DNA from: Acidobacteriota bacterium
Lineage (GTDB): Bacteria; Acidobacteriota; UBA6911; RPQK01; JAJDTT01
Assembly (NCBI GenBank): GCA_965209055.1
Contig: OZ242374.1
Coordinates: 5,216,001-5,280,000, forward strand
Length of the DNA: 64,000 nucleotides
Direction: 5' to 3'
Shown here: piece by piece, positions 1 to 36,153 of the stretch
Layout: each line of letters begins with the position of its first letter
Position numbering within the stretch: position 1 is the first letter of the stretch
Notes under the pieces: model-generated
Seen by the model: only the letters and a program-made list of their open reading frames with translations
The model's database searches: none
Told to the model about the DNA's origin: nothing
Program-made: the position numbers and the translations under genes

Positions 1-410
1 TCGAAAAATTCCGCCGCCAGCTTCCGGGCCATTCCTGAAAAGAGACGGCTGCCGACGGCCGCCAGGGTCCCGGCCACCAGGGCATTCCCCTGGTAGTGGA
101 CCACCGTCTCCTGGCCGTCCTCTTCCAGCCTCAGCTTTCCCTCGGCCCGGATTCCGCCCACGGTGCCGTTTCCCTGGACCCGCAGGGTCAGGTCCGAAGG
201 CTCCTTCTTGTCGCGAACTTCCACGTTTCCGCCGAAGACGCCGCGAATCGGACCGAGGGCCAACTCCAACTCCGCTCTGAAACGGTCTTCCCCGTCCGGC
301 ACCAGAGTCTTGACGCCGGGAGTGGCCCGGGCCAACACCTGGGGATCGTTCAATAGCTGCCAGACTCGGAGACGGGATAAGGCCAGTCGGTGGGTTCCCG
401 ATAGCTGCAT
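1..410 (-). CDS. coxG: CoxG/SRPBCC-family protein (CO dehydrogenase subunit G-like), runs off the left edge
   Basis: Own translation from ATG at 410: MQLSGTHRLALSRLRVWQLLNDPQVLARATPGVKTL...GNALVAGTLAAVGSRLFSGMARKLAAEFF. Typical CoxG pattern; an xdhC-family gene is nearby. Not in the ORF track. Confidence 0.8.
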   Translation of the reverse strand, partial: MQLSGTHRLALSRLRVWQLLNDPQVLARATPGVKTLVPDGEDRFRAELELALGPIRGVFGGNVEVRDKKEPSDLTLRVQGNGTVGGIRAEGKLRLEEDGQETVVHYQGNALVAGTLAAVGSRLFSGMARKLAAEFF

Positions 411-518
411 CAAGGGCCTCGAACAACGGTGACCAGAGGCGCCAACTCAGGGCGCTCCCTATTCTTCAACCGCCGTTTAGGTCTGTCAATCACTTTTCTC
501 GGAAACCAGGGGAAATTG

Positions 519-602
519 CTCCCCCACCGGCCTGGAGCGGCGATGTCCTAACCGCCGATTCTTGGACCATCGCGAAACCCGGCGCACGTGCGATTGGAAA
601 TC
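519..602 (+). repeat. Left part of a degenerate REP-like element interrupted by the integrative element
   Basis: ctcccccaccggcc-tggagcggcgatgtcctaaccgccga...gtgcGATTGGAAATC resembles the intact copies (e.g. 18744-18877) but lacks the terminal gcccctcct, which is found at 8149-8157. Confidence 0.7.
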
Positions 603-644
603 CGTTACTCTGTCCAGATGAGATAGGGGATTGGTCCTGTATTT

Positions 645-1760
645 TCAACAGTTTATCCCAATTCTCCCCTCTAAATGCTCCCTCTTGGTTCTTACTCGTT
701 GCCTGTTTGTTGCCGGTTGCGTTTGGGAGTCTTCGTTAGCCTGTGCCTCCCGAATGCTGGCCAGCGCATGAGAACTGACGTACCCCGCATACCGCATGGT
801 CGTGCTGATCGCCGAGTGGCCCATCAGCTTCTGCACCGTCCTCACGTCCACCCCCTGCATCAGCCAGTGGCTGCACCGGAATCGCCGCAGGTCGTGAAAT
901 CCGACCTCCAAGCCGACCCTCTCGCCGGCCCGGCGCAGTGGCATGTCGGGATTCACCCATCTCGTCCCGGTCCTGCTGTTGACAAAGACATATGAGGTGT
1001 TCAGGTACCGTGGGAGCCCTGCCAGATATCCGGTGGCGTACTGCGACAGCGGTATCTCCCTCGTCCTGTCGTTCTTGGTGAATTCCACCCATAGCAGCCT
1101 CCGGGATAGGTCCACCCGTTTCCAGGTGAGCGACAAAGCTTCGCCTTTTCGTATCCCCGTCTCGCCGATCGCCGCGATCATGGCTTGCAGGTAGGGATTC
1201 TCCACCGCCTCGACCAGGTCGCGGAACTGCTGGACCGTCAAAGGCCGGAAGACCTTCTTCGGCTCCTTCAGTTTGGGGAACCGAATCAACGGGTGCGTGT
1301 CCACCTCTCCGCACTCCAGCGCGTAGGAAAACAGCTTGCTGATGGCGGCAATGGCGCGGTTCACCGTGGCCGGTTTGACTTGCTTCTTCCTCTGGGCGAC
1401 GTAGCGGTGCAGGTCTTTGCGTTGGAACTCCTTCAGGGGAATGTTCCCCAGCATGGAGTTGAGGCTCTTGAACGAACCCTCATAGCTCCGCCAGGAGCGC
1501 AGACGAGGTTTGCAGTACTCCTCGAGAAAACGCTTGTAGAAGCTCTGGACCGTCCAGATGGAGCGTTTCCCGCCGGCGAGCTCCTCCTTGAGCTGCTTCC
1601 AGGTGCCGTCCAGGATGCTGGACTCGATTCGTGTTTGAAGCGCCTGTGCGCTCCGGTAGTTGGGGGCGTACATTCTGAGCCGACCGGATCCGTTCGGCCA
1701 GTACTTGCTGACGACGAAACGTCGTCTCCCCCGGCGATCCTTCACCTTGTAGATGCCCAT
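645..1760 (-). CDS. Tyrosine recombinase / phage-type integrase
   Basis: TGIRKGEALSL (R), KND (K), FHDLRR (HxxR), LMGHSAISTTMRY (H, Y). ATG at 1760 has SD GAAAGGAGG and is preferred over TTG 1829. Confidence 0.95.
   Translation of the reverse strand: MGIYKVKDRRGRRRFVVSKYWPNGSGRLRMYAPNYRSAQALQTRIESSILDGTWKQLKEELAGGKRSIWTVQSFYKRFLEEYCKPRLRSWRSYEGSFKSLNSMLGNIPLKEFQRKDLHRYVAQRKKQVKPATVNRAIAAISKLFSYALECGEVDTHPLIRFPKLKEPKKVFRPLTVQQFRDLVEAVENPYLQAMIAAIGETGIRKGEALSLTWKRVDLSRRLLWVEFTKNDRTREIPLSQYATGYLAGLPRYLNTSYVFVNSRTGTRWVNPDMPLRRAGERVGLEVGFHDLRRFRCSHWLMQGVDVRTVQKLMGHSAISTTMRYAGYVSSHALASIREAQANEDSQTQPATNRQRVRTKREHLEGRIGINC
700..718 (+). promoter_or_regulatory. Candidate integrase arm-type binding site (left)
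   Basis: tgcctgtttgttgccggtt, 17/19 identical to 8013-8031, about 100 bp inside the att core. Confidence 0.6.
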
Positions 1761-1803
1761 GCATCTCCTCCTTTCTGGATCCGGGTTCTTCGCCGTGGTG
1801 CGA

Positions 1804-1812
1804 ATCCTACCA
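1804..1812 (-). promoter_or_regulatory. Extended -10 promoter candidate for the integrase
   Basis: TGgTAGGAT on the minus strand about 45 nt upstream of ATG 1760. Confidence 0.4.
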
Positions 1813-1867
1813 CGGCTCAAGCAAATCAACGTCGGCGTTCAAGTCCTCCAGGGCGAGGACCCGGCAG

Positions 1868-2060
1868 CAACTTCTACCGCCAGTTTGGTGTGAACCCCGC
1901 CAAGGCCGGTGACAAAGCGGCCGCCAATAACTCTCGGAAGAGGTCGCTCCGCAAGTTGAAGAAGATCAAGGAGGCGTGGCCGGATCTTAACTTCGGGCTG
2001 GCGCGGGGCGTCCTCATTGTCGAGCCATCCGCTCCGTCGGTTCCCTCACTCACCCAGTAG
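1868..2060 (+). pseudogene. C-terminal remnant of a plasmid-encoded RepA-type replication protein
   Basis: FYRQFGVNPAKAGDKAAANNSRKRSLRKLKKIKEAWPDLNFGLARGVLIVEPSAPSVP* recalls the RepA_C C-terminus; no start codon or N-terminal part present. Confidence 0.6.
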
Positions 2061-2267
2061 GCGGCGCGCCGGCGGGAGGAAAGCCACGACCCTCTGGGAT
2101 CGGATCAGGGTCCGATAAGTGGATTTTATCGGACCTAAAAACTTTTCAGGAGGGGTTGTCCGGCGGCTCCGCGCTCCGTCCAGAAATGCGCCGCGCAGAT
2201 TCGCCTCGCCCATGACCGCCCCCGGGAGGTCCGTCCAGGAACGTCCGGCAGGAAAAGACTCCCCCGC

Positions 2268-5200
2268 CTATTTCACGGTCAGCCACCAGGAGGCGGCGAA
2301 GGTGGAGTTGGGGGTCAGGAACCTCAGGACGGCCTGTCCCGCCGTTACGAACGTCCGGCGGGCGGTCTCTTTCTCGACCACCAGGGTCCCGCCGATGAAC
2401 GATCGCTGGTCCTGAGTCGGGACTCCATCCGGAATCTCGATCGTGGTGAGGTCGGACGGGTCTCCGTCCCCGTAGTCCTCGGTGCAGGTCATCGTCGTCC
2501 GCTGGAACACCACCCACCCGGGAGAGGCGTTCCGGTTCGGGTCCAACCCGGCATCCAGGCCCTGGAAGTCCCCGTCGCCGGTCCGGACCGTGGGGACGAG
2601 ATCGGTCAGGTCGGACAGGCTCCACCCTTGGACCCGTGGGTTTCCGGTACAGCCCATCGGGGAAGCGTCCGGCATCACCCCGATGCCATCGACCAGAAGG
2701 TAGAGTCCCGGCAGGTGGGGCGGCACGATGGGTCCATACACGGGAGGGACCCAGACCGGGTCCGGCAATTCATTCCCCTTGGGATCGAACAGACGAACCC
2801 GGTAGATCGTCCTCGCCCCGATCAGCCGGTACTCCCCCGGCTCCCCGTAGTCATCCGCGACGGACAGGAACTGAATGCTCTGATCCATAAGGTCGTTGCC
2901 GTACAGTGAGGACCAGACGAGCGCGCCGCCGTTGACGACCCGGTTGTTCTCCGTGGGAGTCGGATCCAGGGCTACCGGCGAACCGTCGCCGCTGTCGTCT
3001 GCCCGGTTGTCCTCATCGGTAGCGGCGTTGACCGCCTCGACGCCTCCGTGCGTCCAAGGGGACAAACGGGCCTCGTTCGTGCCGTTCAGGACCGCGTAGG
3101 CGACACCGATCCGGTGGTCGGAACCGTTCTCGCCGTGCGCCGTGACGGCGGGGCGCACCAAGGCGTTGACGCCCCAGGCGATCCCGCCGGTGAGGGCGGA
3201 AACCTCGGCGGCGGTGTGATGGCCGACGAGGTCGTTGAAGGCGACGGGCTCGACGTTGTGAACCGTCAAGGGCCCGACGTTGCGGCCGGTGCGTTCTTTC
3301 TCGTATTCCTGAGGTTGTCGGTCGGTGGCGAACTGAGCGACGGTCTGGAATCCGAGATCTCCGATGGCGTCGATGTTGTCCGCGCCGTGCAGGCCCTCGG
3401 CCAGAAAGTCGGGGAAGAGGACGTTGGCCGTTTCCGGGGGGTCTCCCGGAGCGCGGTCGTCCTCTTCGGAGCGAGCCCCCACGGCGGTGACGGCGATGAG
3501 GAACCGACCCGAGTTGAACCCGGGTCGATCTTTTCCGGTCTCGTCTTTGAAACTCACGGCCGGGATCTCGTCGAAGAGGATCTCCCTCACGTTCACCGGT
3601 CCTGATCCGTCTTCCTGGTCCGTTCCCGGGATCTCGTGGTGAAAGGGATCGACCAGGACGTTGGCCCCGGCCCGCAGGACGCGCAGATACCAGAGCACCG
3701 GTTCCATCTGGTCGTTGTGGTACTGGACGAGCAGCGTGACGGCTTGCCCGTCCGCAGTGTTGGTGACGGAGATGAAGTTGCGCTGGGCGGCTTCGGTCGC
3801 TCCCAGCCATCCTGAGACGCTCCTGGAGGCCGTTGGGGCCAACGGGTCGGAGTGAGCATAAGCACGGGCGTCGATTCCCATATCGGCGAGAAACAGCAAC
3901 TGGGACCCGGGGTGATCGTCAACGGCACTTGTGCTTCCTATCGGTCCCCCGCCGGAGAGGTCCAGTCTCCCCCCCGGCAGAGAACCATCGTCGGCCAGGA
4001 TGGTCCCGGTGGCGGTCCGCCGCAGCGGGAAGACCGGAGCCCAGCCCGCCTCTGGGTCGGCCGGCAGCAGGGTCACGGTCAGGGTCTCACCATCGTCGGC
4101 AAGAGTGTCGGCTGTCGTGGGCACGCTGATGGCCGTGCTGCTCGTCGAATCATCGGTGTCGGTGTTGGCCGGGATCGTCACGCTGCCCGCCGCCGTGCCG
4201 GTGTAATCGGCGCTGCTGGCCGTGCCGTCTTCCGTCTCGTAGCTCAGCGTCAGGCCGCCCGTGGCCCCGGCCACCCCCCGCACCGGATAGGTCGAGTGCT
4301 CCACCATGAAGCTGAGCGCGCTGCCTTCGGGGGCGCTGGCGTCCTCGATGCGCAGACACGACCATACGGTCAGGTCGTCGTCCGTGCGGCGGGTCTCGAG
4401 GGCCGCCGGCAGCGTTGCGGTGGCGTCCAGATTCGTGCCGCACAGGGAGAGATCGGTCAGGTCGGCCAGACTGCCGAGTTGGCCCGGAATCCCTCCCGTG
4501 AGGGGGTTGCCGGCCAGATGCAACAATTGGAGGCTGGTCAAGGCACTCAAGTCCGGGATGCTCCCGCTGAGTCGGTTCTGGTCGAGGACGAGGCGTTGGA
4601 GGCTGGTCAGGGCACTCAAGTCCGGGATGCTCCCGCTGAGTCGGTTTCGGTTGAGATAGAGCCAAGTGAGGCTGGTCGGGAAAACGCTGGCGTCAATGCC
4701 CCCGCTCAATTCGTTGTCGAAGAGGACGAGCCTGTTGAGGCTGGTCAGGTCGCTCAGGTCCGGGATGCTCCCGCTGAGTCGGTTGCGGTGCAGGAAGAGG
4801 ACTCTCAGGCTGCCCGGGAGATCGCTGGCGTCAAGGCTCCCGGTCAATCGGTTGTCGTTGAGGATGAGGGTGTGGAGACGGGGGAGGCTGCTCAGGTCGG
4901 GGATCGGGCCGCTGAGCCGGTTGTAGCTGAGGTAGAGGATTCTGAGCTTGGAAAGGCCGCTGAGGTCGGGAAAGGGCCCGCTGAGTTGGTTGTGCTGGAA
5001 TTGGACGTTGGAAAGCTCGGTGAGACCGCTTAGGTCCGGGATTTCCCCGCTGAGCTGGTTATCGTAGAGGTGGATTTGGTTGAGATTGGTAAGAGCGCTG
5101 AGGTCCGGAATACTCCCGCTAAGTCGGTTCTGGTAGAGTTCGATTTGTCGGAGATTGGTAAGAGCGCTGAGGTCCGGAATGGACCCGCTCAACTCGTTGC

Positions 5201-5615
5201 TGGCGAGTAAGAGTTCTTCGAGGGCGGTCAGGCTGCTCAGGTCGGGAATCTCCCCGCTCAACTCGTTGCTGAAGAAGGCGAGGATTTGGAGGGCGGTCAG
5301 GCTATTCAGGGCCGCCGGAATCGTTCCGGTGAGTTGGCGGCTGCCGAGGACAAGCGAGGTGACCCGGCTCCCGGTCACGGTGATCCCGTCCCACGAGGCC
5401 ATGCTCAGGCTGTTGGCCCAGTTCAGGCTCGCCGTGCCCCGTAAGGCATCCATGAGCCCCAGCAGGGCGGCGCAGTCGCCGGCCAGGGCCGCGGGGTCGG
5501 AGGGAGCAGGTGTCACGCCGGTGATCGCGACGTCGGTCACCGCGCAAGAGGTCTGCGCACCAGCTTCGGTTGCCAGTCCCAACAGGAGGGCCGAGCTCGA
5601 CAAAGCCATCGCCAA
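2268..5615 (-). CDS. Secreted leucine-rich repeat protein (plant-type LRR + Calx-beta-like domain + unknown C-terminal domain); true start probably further upstream
   Basis: Signal peptide ending TEAGA|Q; LRRNT-like cap (DCAALL...LNW...WDGITV); 13-14 23-aa repeats LxxLxLxxNxLSGxIPDLSxL; Calx-beta-like YETEDGTASSADY...DDGETLTVTL. Confidence 0.9.
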   Translation of the reverse strand: MAMALSSSALLLGLATEAGAQTSCAVTDVAITGVTPAPSDPAALAGDCAALLGLMDALRGTASLNWANSLSMASWDGITVTGSRVTSLVLGSRQLTGTIPAALNSLTALQILAFFSNELSGEIPDLSSLTALEELLLASNELSGSIPDLSALTNLRQIELYQNRLSGSIPDLSALTNLNQIHLYDNQLSGEIPDLSGLTELSNVQFQHNQLSGPFPDLSGLSKLRILYLSYNRLSGPIPDLSSLPRLHTLILNDNRLTGSLDASDLPGSLRVLFLHRNRLSGSIPDLSDLTSLNRLVLFDNELSGGIDASVFPTSLTWLYLNRNRLSGSIPDLSALTSLQRLVLDQNRLSGSIPDLSALTSLQLLHLAGNPLTGGIPGQLGSLADLTDLSLCGTNLDATATLPAALETRRTDDDLTVWSCLRIEDASAPEGSALSFMVEHSTYPVRGVAGATGGLTLSYETEDGTASSADYTGTAAGSVTIPANTDTDDSTSSTAISVPTTADTLADDGETLTVTLLPADPEAGWAPVFPLRRTATGTILADDGSLPGGRLDLSGGGPIGSTSAVDDHPGSQLLFLADMGIDARAYAHSDPLAPTASRSVSGWLGATEAAQRNFISVTNTADGQAVTLLVQYHNDQMEPVLWYLRVLRAGANVLVDPFHHEIPGTDQEDGSGPVNVREILFDEIPAVSFKDETGKDRPGFNSGRFLIAVTAVGARSEEDDRAPGDPPETANVLFPDFLAEGLHGADNIDAIGDLGFQTVAQFATDRQPQEYEKERTGRNVGPLTVHNVEPVAFNDLVGHHTAAEVSALTGGIAWGVNALVRPAVTAHGENGSDHRIGVAYAVLNGTNEARLSPWTHGGVEAVNAATDEDNRADDSGDGSPVALDPTPTENNRVVNGGALVWSSLYGNDLMDQSIQFLSVADDYGEPGEYRLIGARTIYRVRLFDPKGNELPDPVWVPPVYGPIVPPHLPGLYLLVDGIGVMPDASPMGCTGNPRVQGWSLSDLTDLVPTVRTGDGDFQGLDAGLDPNRNASPGWVVFQRTTMTCTEDYGDGDPSDLTTIEIPDGVPTQDQRSFIGGTLVVEKETARRTFVTAGQAVLRFLTPNSTFAASWWLTVK

Positions 5616-5743
5616 GCCGCGCCAGCGAAGGCCAACACCGCCGCGGTCGCGGGAGAGCGCCGTTGCACCCCGACGGGCGGCCGGGCCAGCGCAATGCTCG
5701 GAAAAGGCAGCAAGGTCGCCAACTGGGTGCGGGCAGGCGACAG

Positions 5744-5795
5744 GGCTCCTGGCTCCTGGCTCCTGGCTCCTGGCTCCTGGCTCCTGGCTCCTGGC
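5744..5795. repeat. Heptanucleotide tandem repeat (GGCTCCT)x7 + GGC
   Basis: Seven perfect copies counted directly. Confidence 0.97.
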
Positions 5796-6274
5796 AAGAT
5801 CGTGTGCACTGAGCGTCCCCTTTAGTCAAGCATCCGTGCCGCCCCTTCCGCGGCAAATTTAGCACAGCTTGGCTCGAAAGGCCGTCACTAAGGTCAGGCA
5901 TGGGCGTGTGGCTGTCCGTCCAGCCTCCGCCAGCGGAGCGCGACGGAGCGGGGATCTCCGCGACCGGGTGTCACTCCTTGTTGACCTGGTCCAACTCCGA
6001 GCGTTTCCGAACGCCACCCAGCGGAGCGGTGTCGTGGCGTCCCCTCCCCTCGCCCAGTCGCAGATATAGGGGATTAACGGGGGCTGGGGGTCCAGACCGG
6101 ACACAGGAGAGGAAGAGCGACGAGTTCCTGGTGGAGTACCTGCGGGTGAACGAGGAGCACTGCCCCCGCTGAGTAGCCAGTAGAACAGTTCCCCCCTAAA
6201 GGCCTCTTCCAGCGGCGCGGCTCGATCCAGGTCCGCGAATCCGGCAAGGGATAGACTGGACAGGAAAGGATTCA

Positions 6275-6811
6275 ATGATCTGCTACGTGGCGACGCACAA
6301 TGAGAGTGGGAGGCGATATGTCGGCATCACCAAGGGCTCGCTGAGTCTCCGTAGGAGTACGCACGAAAGCCATGCCAAGAAGGAGGTGGACAATACCTTT
6401 TTCCACCAAGCCATCCGAGCATACGGTGCCGATGGATTTTCTTGGAAGGTGGTAGCTGAGGGAGACGAAGAAGTTATTAGGCTGCTAGAGAACGCCCTGA
6501 TTCACACATGGCAAACAAATTGGCCTGACCAAGGTTTTAACTCCAAGGGAGGGGCAGAATGGATTGACCAACCTCCGTTGACACAACCGCCAGAAGACTA
6601 TTCCGATTCGCCTTTCGGAAATGTGGATGTCTTGTACATGATGTATAGCTTGGACGCGATTGTCAGTTGGGTCGAGAGAAATTACCCGGACGGTGATCGT
6701 TGTAGCGACTTAAGGGAAATGGGCGACAGGTTACTGAAACGGCTGGATCGAATCGACCCCCCTCGTGGTCCAAGCAGCGCTGACGAACCTGACAGCCGAG
6801 AGAACCACTGA
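6275..6811 (+). CDS. GIY-YIG family endonuclease
   Basis: ICYVATHNESGRRYVGIT (GIY..YIG variant), conserved R (LRRSTH), E (LLENALI) and N (GFN); SD GGAAAGGA. Confidence 0.85.
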   Translation: MICYVATHNESGRRYVGITKGSLSLRRSTHESHAKKEVDNTFFHQAIRAYGADGFSWKVVAEGDEEVIRLLENALIHTWQTNWPDQGFNSKGGAEWIDQPPLTQPPEDYSDSPFGNVDVLYMMYSLDAIVSWVERNYPDGDRCSDLREMGDRLLKRLDRIDPPRGPSSADEPDSRENH

Positions 6812-7191
6812 GACGCCACAACATAGCCGGCCCATAGGATTTTCAGTAACCTTCTGCGGCTCACACGGCGGTGCCACTTCCGCCGCCGAAAAACTCCCGT
6901 AACAGATCAAGATGGCCTTCGCCAGAATTATTTCCGCCTCTCGGGGAAATCCTCCTCCCGCCACTCGATAGAGCAATAGACCAGGTTCTCGGGGAGCTTT
7001 TCGGTTTTGCCCAGGCAGGACGAATTCTAGGAGCCCTCTTCGAGCTTGTAGGGACCCCCCAACTCCGAAGCGGTGGTGCTTTCGTAGGTAGAGTTTCCGG
7101 GATAAGTGCCGCGTTGGGGGAATGAACTCCTTGGATGACCGCAACAAGTCTTCAGAAATCTTCGCAGGGGCCTTCCCGCAGGGATCAATTC

Positions 7192-7288
7192 GACGGGAGC
7201 GACCCCCCCAGGGGGTGTTGCGCAGATGTGAATCGCGCAACACCCCCGCGCCCGCACCGGGCAGCAAAAAGGGGGGGTCGCTCCCGTC
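7192..7288. repeat. Nested perfect inverted repeats (cruciform), possible origin
   Basis: 18-bp IR 7192-7209/7271-7288 enclosing a 13-bp IR 7211-7223/7235-7247. Confidence 0.85.
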
Positions 7289-7803
7289 CACCTCTATTTT
7301 CCCCGTGCGGCCACCCGGTGGCCGGAAATGGGGCCGTAACTGACTGAAAGAAAAGAAGCTCGGGGAGAGTGCATTTGTGAATCACCGGGACCGCTTTTTG
7401 TGAATCCACCCCCTTTGTCCCATTCACATCCCGGATCGGGCGCGAGACCCTCTTTTCGCACTGCCGAAACGAGCCTCCATTAGCCCTTGCGACTGCCAAA
7501 TGCGTTCAACGTCAATCACGACCTGGAAGGAGCGACTTTCCGCCGCTGGTTGCAACTCGACCGCCCGCTTCAGTGCGGCCGTCACCCCGCCACAAGAGAC
7601 GAATCGGGGGCAACCAGGTCTTTTTCGGCGTTACCGATGGTCACGGCGGTTTTACGCCCAACTGTCAAAACATTGGACGCGTAGGATGGCCCCTGTTGAC
7701 CTGAAACAGGCGGACGAAGGGTCTGGCGCCTTTGATTCGGAGGCGTGAGAAGGAACCCTGCGCACAATGGCGGCGCGGCGTATTTCGTGGTAGCGTCCAA
7801 CCC

Positions 7804-7974
7804 ATGATTCTGGCCCTTGCGCTTCTCCTCGCCGTCGTCGCCTGGGTCTGCTACGCCGTCGCCCGCGCCCTGGACGCGAGTCTTGAAGAGGCGGACCGCC
7901 AGGCGGCTGCGGTGTTGGCAAACGATCGTCGAATCGCATTCACGATGTCTCCGAGCATCGGGAATACGAGGTAA
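7804..7974 (+). CDS. Small single-TM hypothetical protein (56 aa)
   Basis: MILALALLLAVVAWVCYAVARALDASLEEADRQ..., hydrophobic N-terminus followed by a helical tail. Confidence 0.45.
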   Translation: MILALALLLAVVAWVCYAVARALDASLEEADRQAAAVLANDRRIAFTMSPSIGNTR

Positions 7975-8012
7975 GGGAAAAAAGCGTGTCGGCTTTCAGG
8001 AGCAAAATCTAC

Positions 8013-8031
8013 TGCCTGTTTGTCGCCTGTT
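8013..8031 (+). promoter_or_regulatory. Candidate integrase arm-type binding site (right)
   Basis: tgcctgtttgtcgcctgtt, matches 700-718, about 107 bp inside the right att core. Confidence 0.6.
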
Positions 8032-8137
8032 CAGCACGCCAGACATGGGGAGTCAACCACTTTACCGATTCGGCGAAGAACCCGGTATTCCATTGAAAAC
8101 GTTAATGTTTAGTAGTTATTGACTGAGGGACGGTTGG

Positions 8138-8157
8138 GATTGGAAATCGCCCCTCCT
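8138..8157 (+). repeat. Right att core plus the remaining end of the split REP-like element
   Basis: GATTGGAAATCgcccctcct; repeat homology stops immediately upstream. Confidence 0.75.
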
Positions 8158-8197
8158 CTTGAACCAATTCCGAGAAACCGGGACACCAAGGCAGGCA

Positions 8198-8206
8198 TGC
8201 TATGAT
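8198..8206 (+). promoter_or_regulatory. Extended -10 promoter, possibly giving a leaderless rhomboid mRNA
   Basis: TGcTATGAT ends 6 nt before GTG 8213; no SD; in-frame stop directly upstream of the GTG. Confidence 0.45.
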
Positions 8207-8212
8207 TCATGA

Positions 8213-8923
8213 GTGCGGTTTGGTTCCGGGTACCATGTGACGATCGGTCCCACCATGACCCCCATGGTCAAGTACCTGGTCATCGGCTGCGGGCTCGTCT
8301 TTCTCTACCAGTGGGCCGCCGGTCCGAGCCTCTTGCACATCTTCGGGCTGATTCCCATAGCGGTCCTGGCAAATCTCTACATCTGGCAACTGGGAACGTA
8401 CCTCTTTCTCCACGCCGACTTCTGGCACCTGTTCTGGAACATGTTCACGCTCTGGATGTTCGGGCGCGAGTTGGAACGGTACTGGGGCAGCCGGCAGTTC
8501 CTGCGCTTCTTCCTGATCACCGGAATCGGAGCGGGCCTGCTGTCGGTCGTGGCGGACCCGTGGGGAACGGTCCCCACCATCGGAGCCAGCGGGGCGGTCT
8601 ACGGGATCCTGATGGCCTACGGCATGATGTTTCCCAATCGCCGGATCTATCTCTACTTCCTTTTGCCGGTCAAGGTGAAGTACTTCGTGGCCGGCATAGG
8701 ACTCATCGCCTTCCTGTCGGCCCTCGGTTCGCCTGGAAGCACCATCGCCCACGTCGCCCACCTGGGCGGCATGATCTTCGCCTTTCTCTACCTGAAGCGC
8801 TGGCTCTCGCTCGGCGCCGTGCGCCAGGCGTACCATCGGTGGCGGCTGAAGCGCATACGCAGCCGATTCCGGGTGATGGACGAGGAGAGGCGGAACCGGA
8901 AAGACGATTACTGGATCCAGTGA
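8213..8923 (+). CDS. Rhomboid family intramembrane serine protease
   Basis: FLHADFWHLFWNM, catalytic IGASG, AHLGG, multiple TM helices. Confidence 0.95.
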   Translation: MRFGSGYHVTIGPTMTPMVKYLVIGCGLVFLYQWAAGPSLLHIFGLIPIAVLANLYIWQLGTYLFLHADFWHLFWNMFTLWMFGRELERYWGSRQFLRFFLITGIGAGLLSVVADPWGTVPTIGASGAVYGILMAYGMMFPNRRIYLYFLLPVKVKYFVAGIGLIAFLSALGSPGSTIAHVAHLGGMIFAFLYLKRWLSLGAVRQAYHRWRLKRIRSRFRVMDEERRNRKDDYWIQ

Positions 8924-8966
8924 CGAAGTGCGCCGCGAGTCCTGTTTTCATCCCTCCCACGCCGGA

Positions 8967-10085
8967 TTACGGCGCAGGGGACACTTCGTGGATCCCCCCG
9001 GATCGCGCCGCCAGGAAACCGCCGCCGAAGCCGTTGTGGACGGCCAGGATCTCCGCCAGGATGCTGACGGCGATCTGCTCCGGGCCCTCGGCTCCGATGT
9101 CCAGCCCCACCGGGTTGTGAATCCGATCCAAGGCATCCCGACGGGGGCGAAAACCCTCGTCGGCCAGCTCGTCCATGAGCTTCTGGAACCGCGGTCGAGG
9201 TCCCAACACACCCACGTAGAGAGCCCCGCTCTCCAAGGCGTAGCGGATCCCGGCGCCGTCCCGGTCCAACTGGTGGTTCATGATCAGGGCGTAGCTGCCG
9301 GCGGACATCGCCACCTTCTCCGGGAATTCCGTGGGATGGGAGATGGTGGTCCGCGCGCCCGGGAAGCGCTCCGGCCGGTTCAATGAGGGCCGGGGATCGA
9401 CGACGTTCACGGAAAAACCCAGACTCAGCGCCAACCGGACCACCGGTACCGCGTCCATGCCGGCCCCGAAGACGACCAGCTCCAAGGGGGGGCGATTGAC
9501 GTCCAGAAAGACATGGAAATCCCCGGAGGTGTAGATCCGGGACTGCGGAAGAGGCCGGCCCAGCATCTCGAGGGCCGCCGGAATCACTTCCTGGCCCAAC
9601 GCATCCCGGGCCAGGGGACCGGCCGCCGACTCGGCGGGAGCCACAAAAAGCCAACGCCCCAGGGCCTCGGATTCCGGTTCGGGCGCGCAAATGACGGCCC
9701 GTACGGCCCTTTCACCGTTCCTCAGGGCGCTCAGCCAACGTTTCCAGACCGGATCCCGTCCGATGGGTTCCAACAGGACCCGGACCACTCCCCCGCAACC
9801 CAAACGCAATCCCCAGATGGCGTCCTCGGTGAGGTCGAACACCTCCGTCGCGGCTTGTCCCGTTTTGAAGACCCGGCTGGCCGCCCGGGCGACTTCCGGT
9901 TCGAGGCACCCTCCCGAGATCATGCCCCGGAAGTCGCCGTCGGAGCCGATGACGAGCTTGGCCCCCTGCCGGCGGTACGCCGAACCGGTGATCTCGATGA
10001 CGGTCGCCAGGACGGCGCCGCGGCCGCTTTCCAGGATTTCGTCGATGGCTCCGGCCAGTTCGGCAGACTCTCTCACGATGGGCAC
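8967..10085 (-). CDS. xdhC: XdhC/CoxI family molybdenum-cofactor insertion protein
   Basis: GSAYRRQGAK, ISGGCLE, LGCGG, VFGAGMDA, PVGLDIGAEGPEQIAVSILAEI. Confidence 0.93.
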   Translation of the reverse strand: MPIVRESAELAGAIDEILESGRGAVLATVIEITGSAYRRQGAKLVIGSDGDFRGMISGGCLEPEVARAASRVFKTGQAATEVFDLTEDAIWGLRLGCGGVVRVLLEPIGRDPVWKRWLSALRNGERAVRAVICAPEPESEALGRWLFVAPAESAAGPLARDALGQEVIPAALEMLGRPLPQSRIYTSGDFHVFLDVNRPPLELVVFGAGMDAVPVVRLALSLGFSVNVVDPRPSLNRPERFPGARTTISHPTEFPEKVAMSAGSYALIMNHQLDRDGAGIRYALESGALYVGVLGPRPRFQKLMDELADEGFRPRRDALDRIHNPVGLDIGAEGPEQIAVSILAEILAVHNGFGGGFLAARSGGIHEVSPAP

Positions 10086-10105
10086 AGTCTACCGGAGAGA
10101 CGTTC

Positions 10106-10133
10106 GTAGGGGCACCCCTGGTGTGGGTGCCTC
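10106..10133 (+). repeat. GTAG-type REP hairpin (second repeat family)
   Basis: gtaggggcacccctggtgtgggtgcctc; near-identical copy at 58465. Confidence 0.7.
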
Positions 10134-10150
10134 TTCGTCCCTCTTCATGG

Positions 10151-10258
10151 GGAGCGGCGGTTTCCTAACCGTCGAACTGGAGCGGCGATTTCCAATCGCC
10201 GAACTCCTGACTAACAAACTTGGCGACGAAGACTGGGCGATTGGAAATCGCCCCTCCT
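10151..10258 (+). repeat. REP-like element with a duplicated first hairpin
   Basis: ggagcggcggtttcctaacc..., ggagcggcgatttccaatcgcc..., gggcgattggaaatcgcccctcct; abuts the metK stop codon. Confidence 0.9.
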
Positions 10259-11409
10259 TAGAGCCCGGCGGCTTGTCGCAGGGCGTCGGCCCGGTCGGTC
10301 CGTTCCCATGCAAAGCCCTCTTCCTCCCGGCCGAAGTGCCCGAAGGCGGCCGTCCGCCGGAAGATGGGACGCCTGAGCTGCAGGGTCTCGATGATGTCCC
10401 TGGGGGTCAGACGGAAGTGCTCCTGAACCAGATTTCCGATGGTCTCCTCGGCCACGGCTTCTGTCCCTTCCGCGTCCACGGTGACGGAGACCGGTTCGGC
10501 CACGCCGATGGCATAGGCCAGTTGGACCTTCAAGCGTTGGGCAAGTCCCGCGGCGACACAATTCTTGGCGATGTAACGGGCCATGTAGGAGGCGGAACGG
10601 TCGACCTTGGACGGGTCCTTCCCCGAGAAAGCGCCCCCTCCGTGCCCTCCCATGCCACCGTAGGTGTCGACGATGATCTTCCGGCCCGTCACCCCGCAGT
10701 CACCCTGAGGGCCGCCCGTCACGAACCGTCCCGTCGGATTGATGTGGATGGTCGTGCCGCCGTCCATGAGTCCGGCAGGAACAACTGCGCGAATGACCTG
10801 TTCCCGTATGCCGTCGCACAGATCCCCGTAGGAGACGTCGGGGCTGTGCTGCGTCGAGACCACGACGGTGTCGACACGGACCGGTTCCGTCCCGTCGTAT
10901 TCCACCGTCACCTGCGACTTTCCGTCGGGACGCAGCCAGTCGAGCGTTCCCTGACGCCGGGACTCGGACAGACGGCGGGTGAGGGCGTGGGCCAGCATGA
11001 TGGGCAGCGGCATCAACTGAGGGGTCTCGGTGCAGGCGTAGCCGAACATCAGACCCTGGTCGCCGGCTCCCCCGGTGTCCACTCCCAGGGCGATATCGGG
11101 CGACTGCCGGTCCACGGAGCAGATCACACCGCAGGTCTCGCAGTCGAACCCGTACTTGGCGCGCGTATATCCCACGTCCCGGATGACTTCCCGAGCGATC
11201 TTGGGATAGTCCAGAGTGCACGTGGTCGTGATCTCCCCGGCGATGACCACCAGGCCGGTCGTCACCAGGGTCTCGCAGGCCACGCGTCCCTGAGGGTCTT
11301 CCGTCAGGACCGCGTCGAGAACGCCATCGGAAATCTGGTCCGCGATCTTGTCCGGATGCCCTTCGGTGACCGATTCCGAGCTAAACAGGTGTCGACTCTT
11401 TGGCGCCAT
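10258..11409 (-). CDS. metK: S-adenosylmethionine synthetase
   Basis: [37 protein letters not shown]. Confidence 0.99.
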
Positions 11410-11551
11410 GCACTCGTCCTTTGTTTTGGGAATTTCTCAGGTGACCGCCGGAGATGGCAATAACTAGCACAGGGGCCCGCAGAGTGTCAACGCGGACGGA
11501 GCGCCGGGTCAGCCCGCCAGACTCGCGGGAAGGAAGGATACAAATCGCTCT

Positions 11552-13054
11552 CTAGGCGATGATTGTGTCGAGAACCTTTCCACCGATATCGGTGAGCCTT
11601 CTGAAGCGGCCGTCGTGGAGGTAGGTCAGCCGTTCGTCATGAAGACCGAGGAGATTCAAGATGGTCGCGTGGACGTCGCGCATGTGAATGGGCTGGCCGA
11701 TTTGGCCGATGCCGAAATCATCCGTCTCGCCGACTCGTGAACCGCCCTTGACGTCTCCGCCGGCCAGCCACATGCACAGTCCATACTGATTATGGTCCCG
11801 GCCGGGCTTGTCGCCGTACAGATCGTTGATGAATGAAGTGCGCCCCATTTCAGACGCCCAGACGACAAGCGTCTCTTCCTGCAGTCCCTCCCTCTTCAGG
11901 TCCTTGAGCAGCGCAGCGACGGGTTGATCCACCTCGATGCAGTGCCGTGGAAGCCGGCCCTTGATATTGCCGTGGTCGTCCCAACTGCTCTTGCCGTTCT
12001 CGACTCCGTGAACCACGAGACTGTAGCGGACTCCCTTTTGCACCAGGCGCTTGGCCAGCAGGCATTGACGTCCGAATGCCTCCGTAAGCGGATTGTCAAG
12101 GCCGTACATCTTCTTGGTGACTTCCGATTCCTTGGACAGATCCACAACTTCCGGGGCTTCGGCCTGCATGCGGAAAGCCAGTTCATAGGCGTTGATGCGG
12201 GCCTCCAGCTCCGCGGCGGCCGGCCGACCGGCCTGATGCCGGCGGTTGAGCCACGTCAACAGGTCGAACTCTTCACGCTGCTGTTTTCGACTGATCCTTA
12301 CCGGCGGTTTCAGGTCGAGAATGGGTGTGCCGACGGAGCGAAAGAGGGTCCCTTGATATGAAGCGGGCAAGTATCCGCTTCCGCGCACGGCCGCGCCGTT
12401 GATGGGAGCTCCCCTCGGGTCCTGAATGACGACGTAGCCGGGAAGATTCCGGTTGGAGCTCCCCAACCCGTAGGTGATCCAGGCACCGACTGAAGGGTCG
12501 CCCGGAAACTGCGAGCCGGTGTTCACGTGGAGCGTGGCCGGTCCGTGATTGTTGTTATCCACCTCGATGCCGAAAATGAATGCCAGGTCGTCGACACATT
12601 CGCTGAGGTGCGGAAACAGGGTGGAAATATGGTGTCCCGACTTACCGGCCCTCTTGAATTCCCAGGGGCTGGGAATGACCTGGTGGGGCGTATTCAGAAA
12701 TCCGTCGATTTCACCGCTGAAGCCGGTCATTTTGGGAACCCGCCGTCCCGCGTATTCCTTCAGTGCCGGCTTGTAGTCGAAGGTGTCCATCTGGCTCACG
12801 CCTCCGGACATGAAAAGGAAAATGCAGTGCTTTGCCTTGCGGGGAAAGTGCGGCGCACGGGCGGCGAGCGGACTTTGCAGCGTCGGTGACGCACCCAACC
12901 GCTCGGCGAGAATCCCGGCCAGGGCGAGGGCTCCGATCCCGTTATAGGAACGGGACAGGAATTCCCGGCGAGAGTGGGCATTGGGACCGAAACCGGAACA
13001 CTGTCCACCCCATTGATTCGCGGAAAACTGCGGAACTTCTGCTCTTTTCTTCAC
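11552..13054 (-). CDS. DUF1501 domain protein (Tat-exported, sulfatase/alkaline-phosphatase-like fold)
   Basis: SRREFL Tat motif, IFLFMSGGVSQMDTFDYKP, WDDH, SEMGRT, GRDH. Confidence 0.92.
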   Translation of the reverse strand: MKKRAEVPQFSANQWGGQCSGFGPNAHSRREFLSRSYNGIGALALAGILAERLGASPTLQSPLAARAPHFPRKAKHCIFLFMSGGVSQMDTFDYKPALKEYAGRRVPKMTGFSGEIDGFLNTPHQVIPSPWEFKRAGKSGHHISTLFPHLSECVDDLAFIFGIEVDNNNHGPATLHVNTGSQFPGDPSVGAWITYGLGSSNRNLPGYVVIQDPRGAPINGAAVRGSGYLPASYQGTLFRSVGTPILDLKPPVRISRKQQREEFDLLTWLNRRHQAGRPAAAELEARINAYELAFRMQAEAPEVVDLSKESEVTKKMYGLDNPLTEAFGRQCLLAKRLVQKGVRYSLVVHGVENGKSSWDDHGNIKGRLPRHCIEVDQPVAALLKDLKREGLQEETLVVWASEMGRTSFINDLYGDKPGRDHNQYGLCMWLAGGDVKGGSRVGETDDFGIGQIGQPIHMRDVHATILNLLGLHDERLTYLHDGRFRRLTDIGGKVLDTIIA

Positions 13055-35849: not shown

Positions 35850-36153
35850 AGGAAGGGCGATTTCCAATCGCCCAGTCTTCGTGGCCAAGTTCGTCACACC
35901 GGAATTCGGCGGTTAGGAAACCGCCGCTCCCCATGAGGAAGGGCGATTTCCAATCGCCCGGTCTTCGTCGCCAAGTTTGTCATACTGGAGTTCGGCGGTT
36001 GGGAAACCGCCGCTCCCCACGAGGAGGGGCGATTTCCAATCGCCCGGTTTTTTGTCGCCAGTTTGTCATACTGGAGTTCGGCGGTTAGGAAGCCGCTGCT
36101 CCTTTCCGTTTTCTACCGGGCGTCCGCCGGCTCGGGCCGGTGGGGGAGCTTCT
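35850..36153 (-). repeat. Tandem array of three 86-bp REP doublets plus element tail
   Basis: Units start at 35850, 35936 and 36022; each has gggcgatttccaatcgccc and a ggcggtt(a/g)ggaa(a)ccgc hairpin. Confidence 0.93.

Follow-up and report, generated by a model that had tools for sequence, protein, structure and literature searches.

In a 64,000-nt stretch of an Acidobacteriota genome (bases 5,216,001-5,280,000 of a single 6.08-Mb contig with a GC content of 62.8%; hereafter the window), a perfect heptanucleotide repeat, (AGGAGCC)n on the minus strand, lies ahead of a gene for a secreted leucine-rich repeat (LRR) protein carried by a mobile element. We propose, with a probability of about one half, that this tract lies in a translated upstream frame and acts as a frame-dependent translational switch, in which fusion of the upstream frame to the LRR signal peptide would be the ON state and the present seven units an OFF, or export-crippled, state. 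The repeat itself is real, locus-specific and beyond chance; from its frames, its copies and its homologs we infer translation of the tract, changes of its length within populations and corresponding changes in expression. The source bacterium is probably a sponge symbiont, and the metagenome runs that contain the window stretch are sponge metagenomes.

The repeat tract and the frames it joins

Tandem Repeats Finder places (GGCTCCT)7.4 at 5744-5795 with a period of 7 and 100% matches, that is, a non-triplet repeat of 7.4 perfect copies. The tract is stop-free in all six frames, and each of its three sense frames, as read from the sequence, encodes the cyclic peptide SQEPGAR. Heptamers repeated at least three times occur at 3 loci in the whole genome, and the only long ones are the window locus, with 7 full units, and a paralog with 6. 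Because the unit is 7 nt long and the tract contains no stop, each unit gained or lost shifts by one the upstream frame that feeds the LRR frame. The features around the tract, in window coordinates, are as follows.

2268..5615, minus strand: LRR protein open reading frame (ORF), 1115 aa from TTG 5615
5553..5615, minus strand: hydrophobic core and predicted cleavage region of the signal peptide, (M)AMALSSSALLLGLATEAGA followed by Q
5616..5743, minus strand: spacer of 128 nt between the repeat and TTG 5615, free of start codons
5744..5795, minus strand: heptanucleotide repeat (AGGAGCC)7.4, 7 full units on the gene strand
5807..5823, minus strand: GTG 5809-5807 with the Shine-Dalgarno (SD)-like motif AAAGGGGA at 5823-5816, opening the frame ..VHTILPGARSQEPGAR..
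5822..5828, minus strand: stop pair, TGA 5828-5826 closing the LRR frame upstream and TAA 5824-5822 closing the GTG frame upstream
5899..5901, minus strand: ATG in the third frame (MPDLSDGL...), resembling the MPD or MPE leader starts of G076, P0124, P0128 and P0123 (below)

The ORF product belongs to the LRR families of Pfam above their curated cut-offs (LRR_4, 1.6e-31, 108 bits against a cut-off of 27; LRR_8, 1.6e-14; LRR_1, 1.1e-17). Plant-type LRRs fill roughly the first 375 residues, and the remaining 740 or so C-terminal residues carry no Pfam family. Its N-terminus is hydrophobic (..GLRWRGLAMALSSSALLLGLATEAGAQ..), with a signal peptide cleavage site that we placed by eye by the A-x-A rule. 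Translation of the minus strand from 5828 to 5400 gives *LKGTLSAHDLARSQEPGARSQEPGARSPVAC...GGVGLRWRGLAMALSSS..., so that the LRR frame is indeed open from 5615 through the repeat up to the TGA at 5828-5826, as the original prediction had it, and equally start-less: of the 70 in-frame codons between 5825 and 5616, none is ATG, GTG, TTG, CTG, ATT, ATC or ATA. The basic n-region of the signal peptide was correctly located upstream of 5615, since the final 27 nt of the spacer (5642-5616) encode GGVGLRWRG in the minus-strand translation. The two candidate starts at the gene itself, TTG 5615 and ATG 5609, both lack an SD-like motif.

In the proposed mechanism, slippage-prone (AGGAGCC)n would lie inside an upstream frame that is read into the LRR signal peptide, and the number of units would decide which start feeds it. 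GTG 5809 lies 194 nt (2 mod 3) from TTG 5615 and comes into frame at 5 units (180 nt) or 8 units (201 nt), an arithmetic already given by the original prediction that we find correct; at n = 2 mod 3 this GTG and its SD-like motif would thus be joined to the gene. ATG 5901, 286 nt from 5615, would be joined to the gene at n = 0 mod 3 (6 or 9 units), and an upstream open frame with a start is therefore available in two of the three repeat phases. At n = 1 mod 3, the present 7 units, the gene would be joined to the start-less frame closed by TGA 5828. With 7 units and the proximal ATG lost, only a truncated signal peptide without its n-region could be made, from TTG 5615 or ATG 5609. The claim that the gene is currently OFF therefore holds in part: the 7 units do join a start-less frame and a proximal ATG is absent, but TTG 5615 or ATG 5609 could yield a protein with a truncated signal peptide despite the OFF phase.

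The second element copy, homologs and related tracts

The genome holds a second, approximately 7-kb copy of the element (G000:C1:1,120,406-1,127,407) with an integrase, an LRR gene and the same weakly assigned neighbour. The corresponding features of the window copy are listed here.

589..8148, no strand: approximate span of the mobile element, bounded tentatively by the 14-nt direct repeats TGCGATTGGAAATC (589-602) and TGGGATTGGAAATC (8135-8148)
645..1829, minus strand: tyrosine recombinase of the phage-integrase family (PF00589, 4.9e-26)
4490..5743, minus strand: block diverged from the paralog (59-96% identity per 100 columns), comprising spacer, signal peptide and the whole LRR domain, with the repeat as its 5' edge
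6275..6811, plus strand: divergent neighbour, matching GIY-YIG weakly (E = 1.6e-4; at 22.4 bits, just below the 22.6 cut-off)

Identity between the two copies extends from about 591 to about 7505. Per 100-column block, the stretches at about 591-2790, 3191-4490 and 5796-7200 are 98-100% identical, mostly 100%, and from about 7200 down to the repeat the blocks hold 1 mismatch and 1 gap column; toward the gene, the first mismatch comes 2 nt past the repeat. The paralogous tract (1,122,117-1,122,158 of the same contig) has 6 full units, 6.4 by periodicity. Judged from these near-identical upstream flanks and the 7 units against 6, the repeat tract appears to change faster than the sequence around it. 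The paralog spacer carries a 12-nt and a 1-nt insertion relative to the window; with one unit fewer (-7 nt), the sum is +6 nt, so the paralog is in the same phase as the window copy and its frame relation is kept. In the paralog, in-frame ATGs precede the TTG by 19 and by 15 codons; its protein, P0138, is annotated from the nearer one (MLSRARGGVGLRWRGLAMALSS..), for which the window has GCG (5660-5658). Besides the repeat, the LRR (ligand-binding) domain has been replaced wholesale between the two copies, together with a second, C-terminal patch (2791-3190, 87-94% identity). For its N-terminal half, the window protein has its nearest match (89%) in P0008, whose C-terminal half is unrelated; these alignments point to domain shuffling inside the LRR protein family.

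The closest proteins to the LRR product are 80-83% identical over their full length and come from metagenome assemblies, some named Caldilineaceae or Chloroflexota. N-terminal variants sit inside 90% clusters, and only a listing of cluster members brought them out; a further listing yielded no more. Two predicted proteins from other assemblies, P0136 (1253 aa; N-terminus ..VQGLDKRGSAVHTVLPGARSQEPGARSQERGVGLRWRGLAMALSSPALLL..) and P0139 (1135 aa; N-terminus MEETVQELDKRGSAVHTVLPGARSQEPGARSQERGVGLRWRGLAMALSI..), read ..AVHTVLPGARSQEPGARSQE-RGVGLRWRGLAMALS.., an LRR-frame fusion (..AVHTVLPGARSQEPGARSQERGVGLRWRGLAMALS..) that matches the predicted 'MHTILPGARSQE-type' reading. Their junction, ..LDKRGSAVHTVLPGARSQEPGARSQE-RGVGLRWRGLAMALS.., holds 14 repeat-encoded residues, or about 6 units. 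The window GTG-5809 frame (..MLD*RGRSVHTILPGARSQEPGAR..) is the leader frame of both proteins, in which it is joined through these units straight to the n-region, and the position of the window's TAA 5824-5822 is Lys in both. From V to L in P0139 there are 28 codons, or 84 nt, which equals 194 - 7 - 103. A 103-nt skip of this kind is present in sponge metagenome contigs of X5 (depth 67) and X7, from two other studies, in which the repeat is joined to 5641. Between repeat and n-region, the repeat-abutting alleles are as start-less as the window. Aligning homologue N-termini, a check that came with the original prediction, has thus produced the predicted fused frame in P0136 and P0139; on the other side, several homologs start next to the signal peptide.

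The n-region is also read in proteins that lack such a fusion. P0147 starts at MGGMAHSRGGVGLRRRG (MGGMAHSRGGVGLRRRGLAKALSS..), with Lys in place of the Met of MALSS, which indicates that the arginine-rich n-region is translated in the LRR family and that the MALSS Met is not a universal start; P0019, P0138 and P0006 also start upstream of the n-region. Called N-termini differ by 6 to 30 residues within 90%-identity clusters (P0016, P0148 and P0150 against P0147, P0008 against P0146, P0007 against P0142), and some LRR-family start calls fall inside the hydrophobic core (MLGLATG..). At the level of predicted proteins, the family suggests frequent disruption of frame or start at the 5' end in several lineages. 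P0136 and P0002, which lie on separate contigs, are identical at 1182 of 1184 residues, and their difference in start may or may not reflect a difference in phase.

A search with the translated leader returned further proteins in which a long SQEPGAR tract precedes a signal peptide, and a Longimicrobiales metagenome-assembled genome (MAG), G076, supplied one more locus (L126).

P0121: about 57 units; fn3 and SWM_repeat domains; in frame
P0123: about 34 units; in frame
P0124: about 40 units; many fn3 domains in the precomputed Pfam list; in frame
P0122: about 33 units; ORF runs out past the tract
P0128: about 29 units; ORF runs out past the tract; out of frame
G076: 65.4 perfect units at its single locus; out of frame

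In G076 a leader (MPDFPSTRPLTTAGSVLTHF), the tract and a spacer are followed by a signal of twin-arginine-like type (..DSSRRRFARSLATLARHAAATVLLLLGILSTVPAQAQ) and by an fn3-repeat ORF that stays open over more than 2612 aa. Its leader ATG is out of frame and reaches a stop 16 codons past the tract, whereas P0124 has the same leader in frame. An MPD or MPE start is common to the leaders of P0124, P0128 and P0123 and to the window ATG-5901 frame, and window and G076 can be aligned over the 30 nt immediately 5' of the tract (CTTGAC..GCTC.GTGC.CACG). The similarity of the upstream flanks is modest, its score being reached by 4 of 1000 shuffles over the last 45 nt and by 35 of 300 over 150 nt. Since window and G076 frame the conserved blocks differently, a conserved leader peptide is disfavoured. 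P0121, P0123, P0124 and P0136/P0139, counted as one allele type, are in frame, and the window, the paralog, G076 and P0128 are not, with P0122 placed in neither group; this split is close to that of random phases (about one third in frame), and as the search favoured in-frame loci it proves nothing either way. We tentatively suggest, while holding it to be rather doubtful, that a leader (ATGCCYGAC..CTTGACWA..GCTCRGTGCWCACG) and (AGGAGCC)n form a portable phase-variation cassette grafted before the signal peptides of differing eukaryote-like surface proteins, namely LRR proteins here and, in the Longimicrobiales MAG and other assemblies, giant fn3 proteins. Such a cassette would span at least two phyla of probably co-resident sponge symbionts, would turn host-interaction proteins ON and OFF stochastically and might also serve as a recombination anchor for swaps of ligand-binding domains. 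The 65-unit tract of G076 and the fn3-repeat ORF behind it belong to the stretch L287 (G076:C5:419000-435000). At about 0.6 kb upstream, the opposite strand encodes a hybrid histidine kinase/response regulator, and VirB11-like (T2SSE) and TraG-like genes are found at about 5.6-7.7 kb upstream, so that the locus may lie on or near a conjugative element.

The unit by itself is no marker of this arrangement. (AGGAGCC)5 occurs in at least 119 stretches of species-representative genomes from many phyla, and the control unit (CCGAGGA)5 in 56; since the control is also frequent, heptamer repeats are a common bacterial background, and we rejected the idea that AGGAGCC is specially widespread. Among 80 fetched (AGGAGCC)5 loci, only L126 has the window's upstream flank in common. 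Within the order, 3 of 75 further genomes contain (AGGAGCC)4, and we rejected these arrays (G065, G066 and G043) as instances of the same phenomenon, given their mixed units and inverted partners. Five loci in G065 and G066 (L066, L067, L070, L075 and L077) are intergenic arrays of AGGAGCC, AGGAGTC, AGAATCC and AGAATTC followed by inverted complements, which form long potential hairpins between genes. They resemble the short tandemly repeated repetitive (STRR) sequences of cyanobacteria, which are intergenic arrays of tandem heptamers at many loci, with mixed units and often inverted partners; the window genome instead has two loci, one pure unit and no inverted partner.

The exact 28-nt flank plus repeat has no match in the contigs of species-representative genomes, and a protein-guided search of genome contigs gave distant relatives only, at most 54% identical in 27 of 28 loci and 65% identical over just 31 residues in the remaining one, none of them informative for the leader. 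A family-level search found no close ortholog in 14 relatives, a degenerate pattern for TDVAITGVTPAP had no match in metagenome contigs, and residues 1-70 of P0139 matched no cluster representative.

That a secreted LRR protein is carried on a mobile element, as the original prediction supposed, is borne out by an integrase-bearing, multi-copy element. The integrase region (about 600-1860) is present in 27 genomic copies of at least 900 nt, including that of the window, at 83-93% identity, and together with the tentative flanking repeats it identifies a tyrosine-recombinase integrative element; the integrase-bearing copies are a large family of small elements of this type. An approximately 420-nt non-coding segment at 7168-7591 is likewise multi-copy, being overlapped by 33 other BLAST matches of at least 150 nt, and between integrase and such segments lie 2-9 kb of varying cargo, with the 6275..6811 neighbour common to the window copy and the paralog only. 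The segment holds a perfect 18-nt inverted repeat (7192-7209/7271-7288) and has no Pfam or Rfam match. The two 14-nt direct repeats resemble a repetitive extragenic palindromic (REP)-like palindrome, GGCGATTTCCAATCGCC, which also occurs in tandem arrays at 10151-10205 and 35850-36102 of the window; the elements may target this palindrome.

Alternative roles for the tract

Several observations weigh against a translated, switching tract. Read in the LRR frame, the spacer has GC contents of 0.83/0.71/0.69 at the three codon positions, where the gene has 0.64/0.49/0.83; at the second position no frame falls below 0.67, a pattern unlike that of coding DNA (42 codons). In DNA of 63-75% GC, long open frames carry no significance, stops making up by our estimate about 2.5% of codons. 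The codons AGG and CCA, two of the seven in the repeat, are rare (8% of Arg and 5% of Pro codons in the genome), and an extension of at least 65 residues before a signal peptide, reaching 150 to 250 in the fn3 loci, is unusual. The 1-nt indels between alleles speak against coding, though one repeat unit offsets one base; the two paralogs would differ in frame between the repeat and the 1-nt indel, and in a second X5 contig (depth 129) the repeat abuts 5642 instead of 5641, a further 1-nt difference between junction alleles. Both genome copies are in the phase without an upstream start. Most homologs keep the MALSS ATG, where gene callers start them, and several own a start just upstream of the signal peptide. 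P0139 is 100% identical to P0004 over 1091 aa, so the differing N-termini of these two are probably a matter of gene calling and not a polymorphism. Within a single population no difference in unit number was seen at the locus, as judged from contigs of X5, X7, X9 and X1 that were built from 31-letter words and end inside the tract; in them, words of pure repeat are several-fold deeper than the flanks (X5, X7 and X9) or about 50-fold deeper (X1, 991-1404 against 23-27), an excess that fits many or long tracts in these communities. The prediction of a phase-variable switch accordingly keeps its real repeat, its 7 units against 6 between paralogs and its in-frame relatives, and is weakened by the spacer, the indel and the proximal starts.

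The spacer, the indel and the proximal starts of homologs together imply that the tract could be a non-translated leader element and, with the paralog and several relatives having proximal ATGs, that the repeat could sit in a 5' untranslated region. Translation would then begin at ATG 5609 or TTG 5615 (in the paralog, at the ATG 15 codons upstream), the tract would lie in that untranslated region or amid the elements of the promoter, and its length would tune transcription, mRNA stability or ribosome loading in a graded, frame-independent way. We rate this below the switch, yet as a serious alternative. From the tract it is 128 nt down to TTG 5615 and 134 nt to the called start ATG 5609, spacings comparable to those of hmw1A and hmw2A; P0138, P0019, P0147 and P0124 would have signal peptides of normal length from their proximal starts; and the different framing of the blocks 5' of the repeat in G076 suggests conservation at the level of DNA or RNA. 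In 38% of long ORFs an SD-like motif stands ahead of the first ATG, compared with 19% in the background, and what we take to be the 16S rRNA 3'-end motif with the anti-SD occurs 7 times in the genome, matched by letters alone. With initiation led by SD motifs, a run of AGGAG cores in the mRNA would not be inert, and the seven cores of the leader would bind 30S subunits. On the other hand, a search of 5500-6400 found no promoters, sigma-70-like ones included, and no terminators; the leader RNA folds unremarkably (z = +0.96); Rfam gives nothing at E <= 1 in 5400-6400, nor at gathering score anywhere in the window; and a tRNA scan of 1-12000 was empty. The absence of promoter, fold and Rfam family leaves a non-translated leader neither helped nor hurt. 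The proteins speak against it: starts at 5609 or 5615 would deprive the window signal peptide of its conserved basic n-region, the n-region of the repeat-abutting alleles could not be translated unless ribosomes traverse the repeat, and P0147 has it translated without the MALSS Met.

We regard it as improbable that the tract is neutral and merely hitch-hikes at the junction between a constant element backbone and an exchangeable LRR cassette, being at most an identity patch in which recombination resolves. The almost wholly identical backbone, the onset of divergence within 2 nt past the repeat and on through the LRR domain, the commonness of heptamers in bacteria and the start-less phase of both genome copies would all suit such a tract. 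It sits poorly with the recurrence of AGGAGCC between a related leader and a signal peptide at no fewer than nine loci (window, paralog, G076, P0121, P0122, P0123, P0124, P0128 and, as one, P0136/P0139), which precede differing families (LRR, fn3) and include at least one in another phylum, and with perfect tracts of up to 65 units where decay or loss would be expected. Less probable still is a coupling through an upstream ORF, in which the stop of the GTG 5809 ORF, set by n mod 3, would deliver ribosomes to the true LRR start or block them from it. At its 6 units, the paralog's GTG ORF has 25 codons and ends in a TGA overlapping an in-frame ATG of the LRR frame (TGATG; ..GTTTGATGG..), a classic stop-start overlap, and at 7 units the window's GTG ORF extends over 90 codons as far as 5537, passing the LRR start in another frame. 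The overlap is owed to the 12-nt insertion, which is peculiar to the paralog, and an X9 contig carries a related insertion with GAC in place of the ATG; in G076 the leader ORF that ends 16 codons past the repeat has no start codon nearby, and the idea is post hoc and drawn from a single locus.

Known repeat systems and the symbiont setting

A repeat switch before a symbiont LRR gene is probably a variation on known repeat-driven phase switches, to which it would add two possible upstream starts, in-frame relatives and a leader-plus-repeat module shared with other secreted proteins. Among the nearest comparisons is neuO of the E. coli K1 prophage CUS-3, where (AAGACTC)n lies in the 5' coding region with 3-53 units, the gene is ON if n is divisible by 3, and 42 of 64 genomes are OFF (PMC13001214). 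Both systems have a 7-nt unit near the 5' end of a surface-related gene on a mobile element, and both have a wide range of units (3-53 in neuO, 6-65 for AGGAGCC). They differ in that the neuO repeat forms the N-terminus of the mature enzyme, with translation proven, whereas the AGGAGCC tract precedes a signal peptide and would be removed along with it; moreover, the window locus has two upstream starts in two frames, which could give two ON phases, and the host of neuO is an enterobacterium. The adhesin genes hmw1A and hmw2A of Haemophilus influenzae have (TGAAAGA)13-38 at 69-106 bp upstream, with unequal numbers at the paralogous loci (PMC2651432). There too a heptanucleotide lies upstream of the called start, at roughly 70-130 nt across the two systems, ahead of a very large secreted adhesin-like protein. 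The hmw repeats act gradedly on transcription and are not in an open frame with the gene, in contrast to the window tract, which is open in all frames and fused in frame to a signal peptide in relatives.

In Beggiatoaceae, TAACTGA repeats, for which a role in translation has been proposed, number 169 sets in one genome (PMC4679880). These, like the STRR sequences, are tandem heptamers near the starts of genes, but their loci are numerous in each genome, against two in the window genome. The opa genes of Neisseria, a multi-copy family, contain (CTCTT)n in the region coding for the signal peptide, where slippage switches translation ON and OFF. Like opa, the window locus has a non-triplet repeat between a start codon and the mature surface protein, and several gene copies; the opa repeat, however, forms the hydrophobic core of the leader, while the AGGAGCC tract precedes the n-region and encodes a hydrophilic peptide.

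To our knowledge, contingency loci are known almost only from host-adapted pathogens and animal commensals, and a search of full-text literature in one library found no paper linking sponge symbionts with phase variation. Sponge symbionts are described as rich in eukaryote-like proteins (ankyrin, tetratricopeptide repeat and LRR proteins) that are thought to mediate contact with the host, with such proteins reported for sponge Chloroflexi (PMC6306507). Translation of the tract would be reported by SQEPGAR, which is a tryptic peptide, and by junction peptides such as ..SQE-R-GVGLR.. or ..SPVACPHPVGDLAAFSEHCAGPAAR. If the proposed frame-dependent switch is real, single symbiont cells would differ from one another in the display of a given host-binding protein, and several phyla would have one switching device in common in a single habitat.

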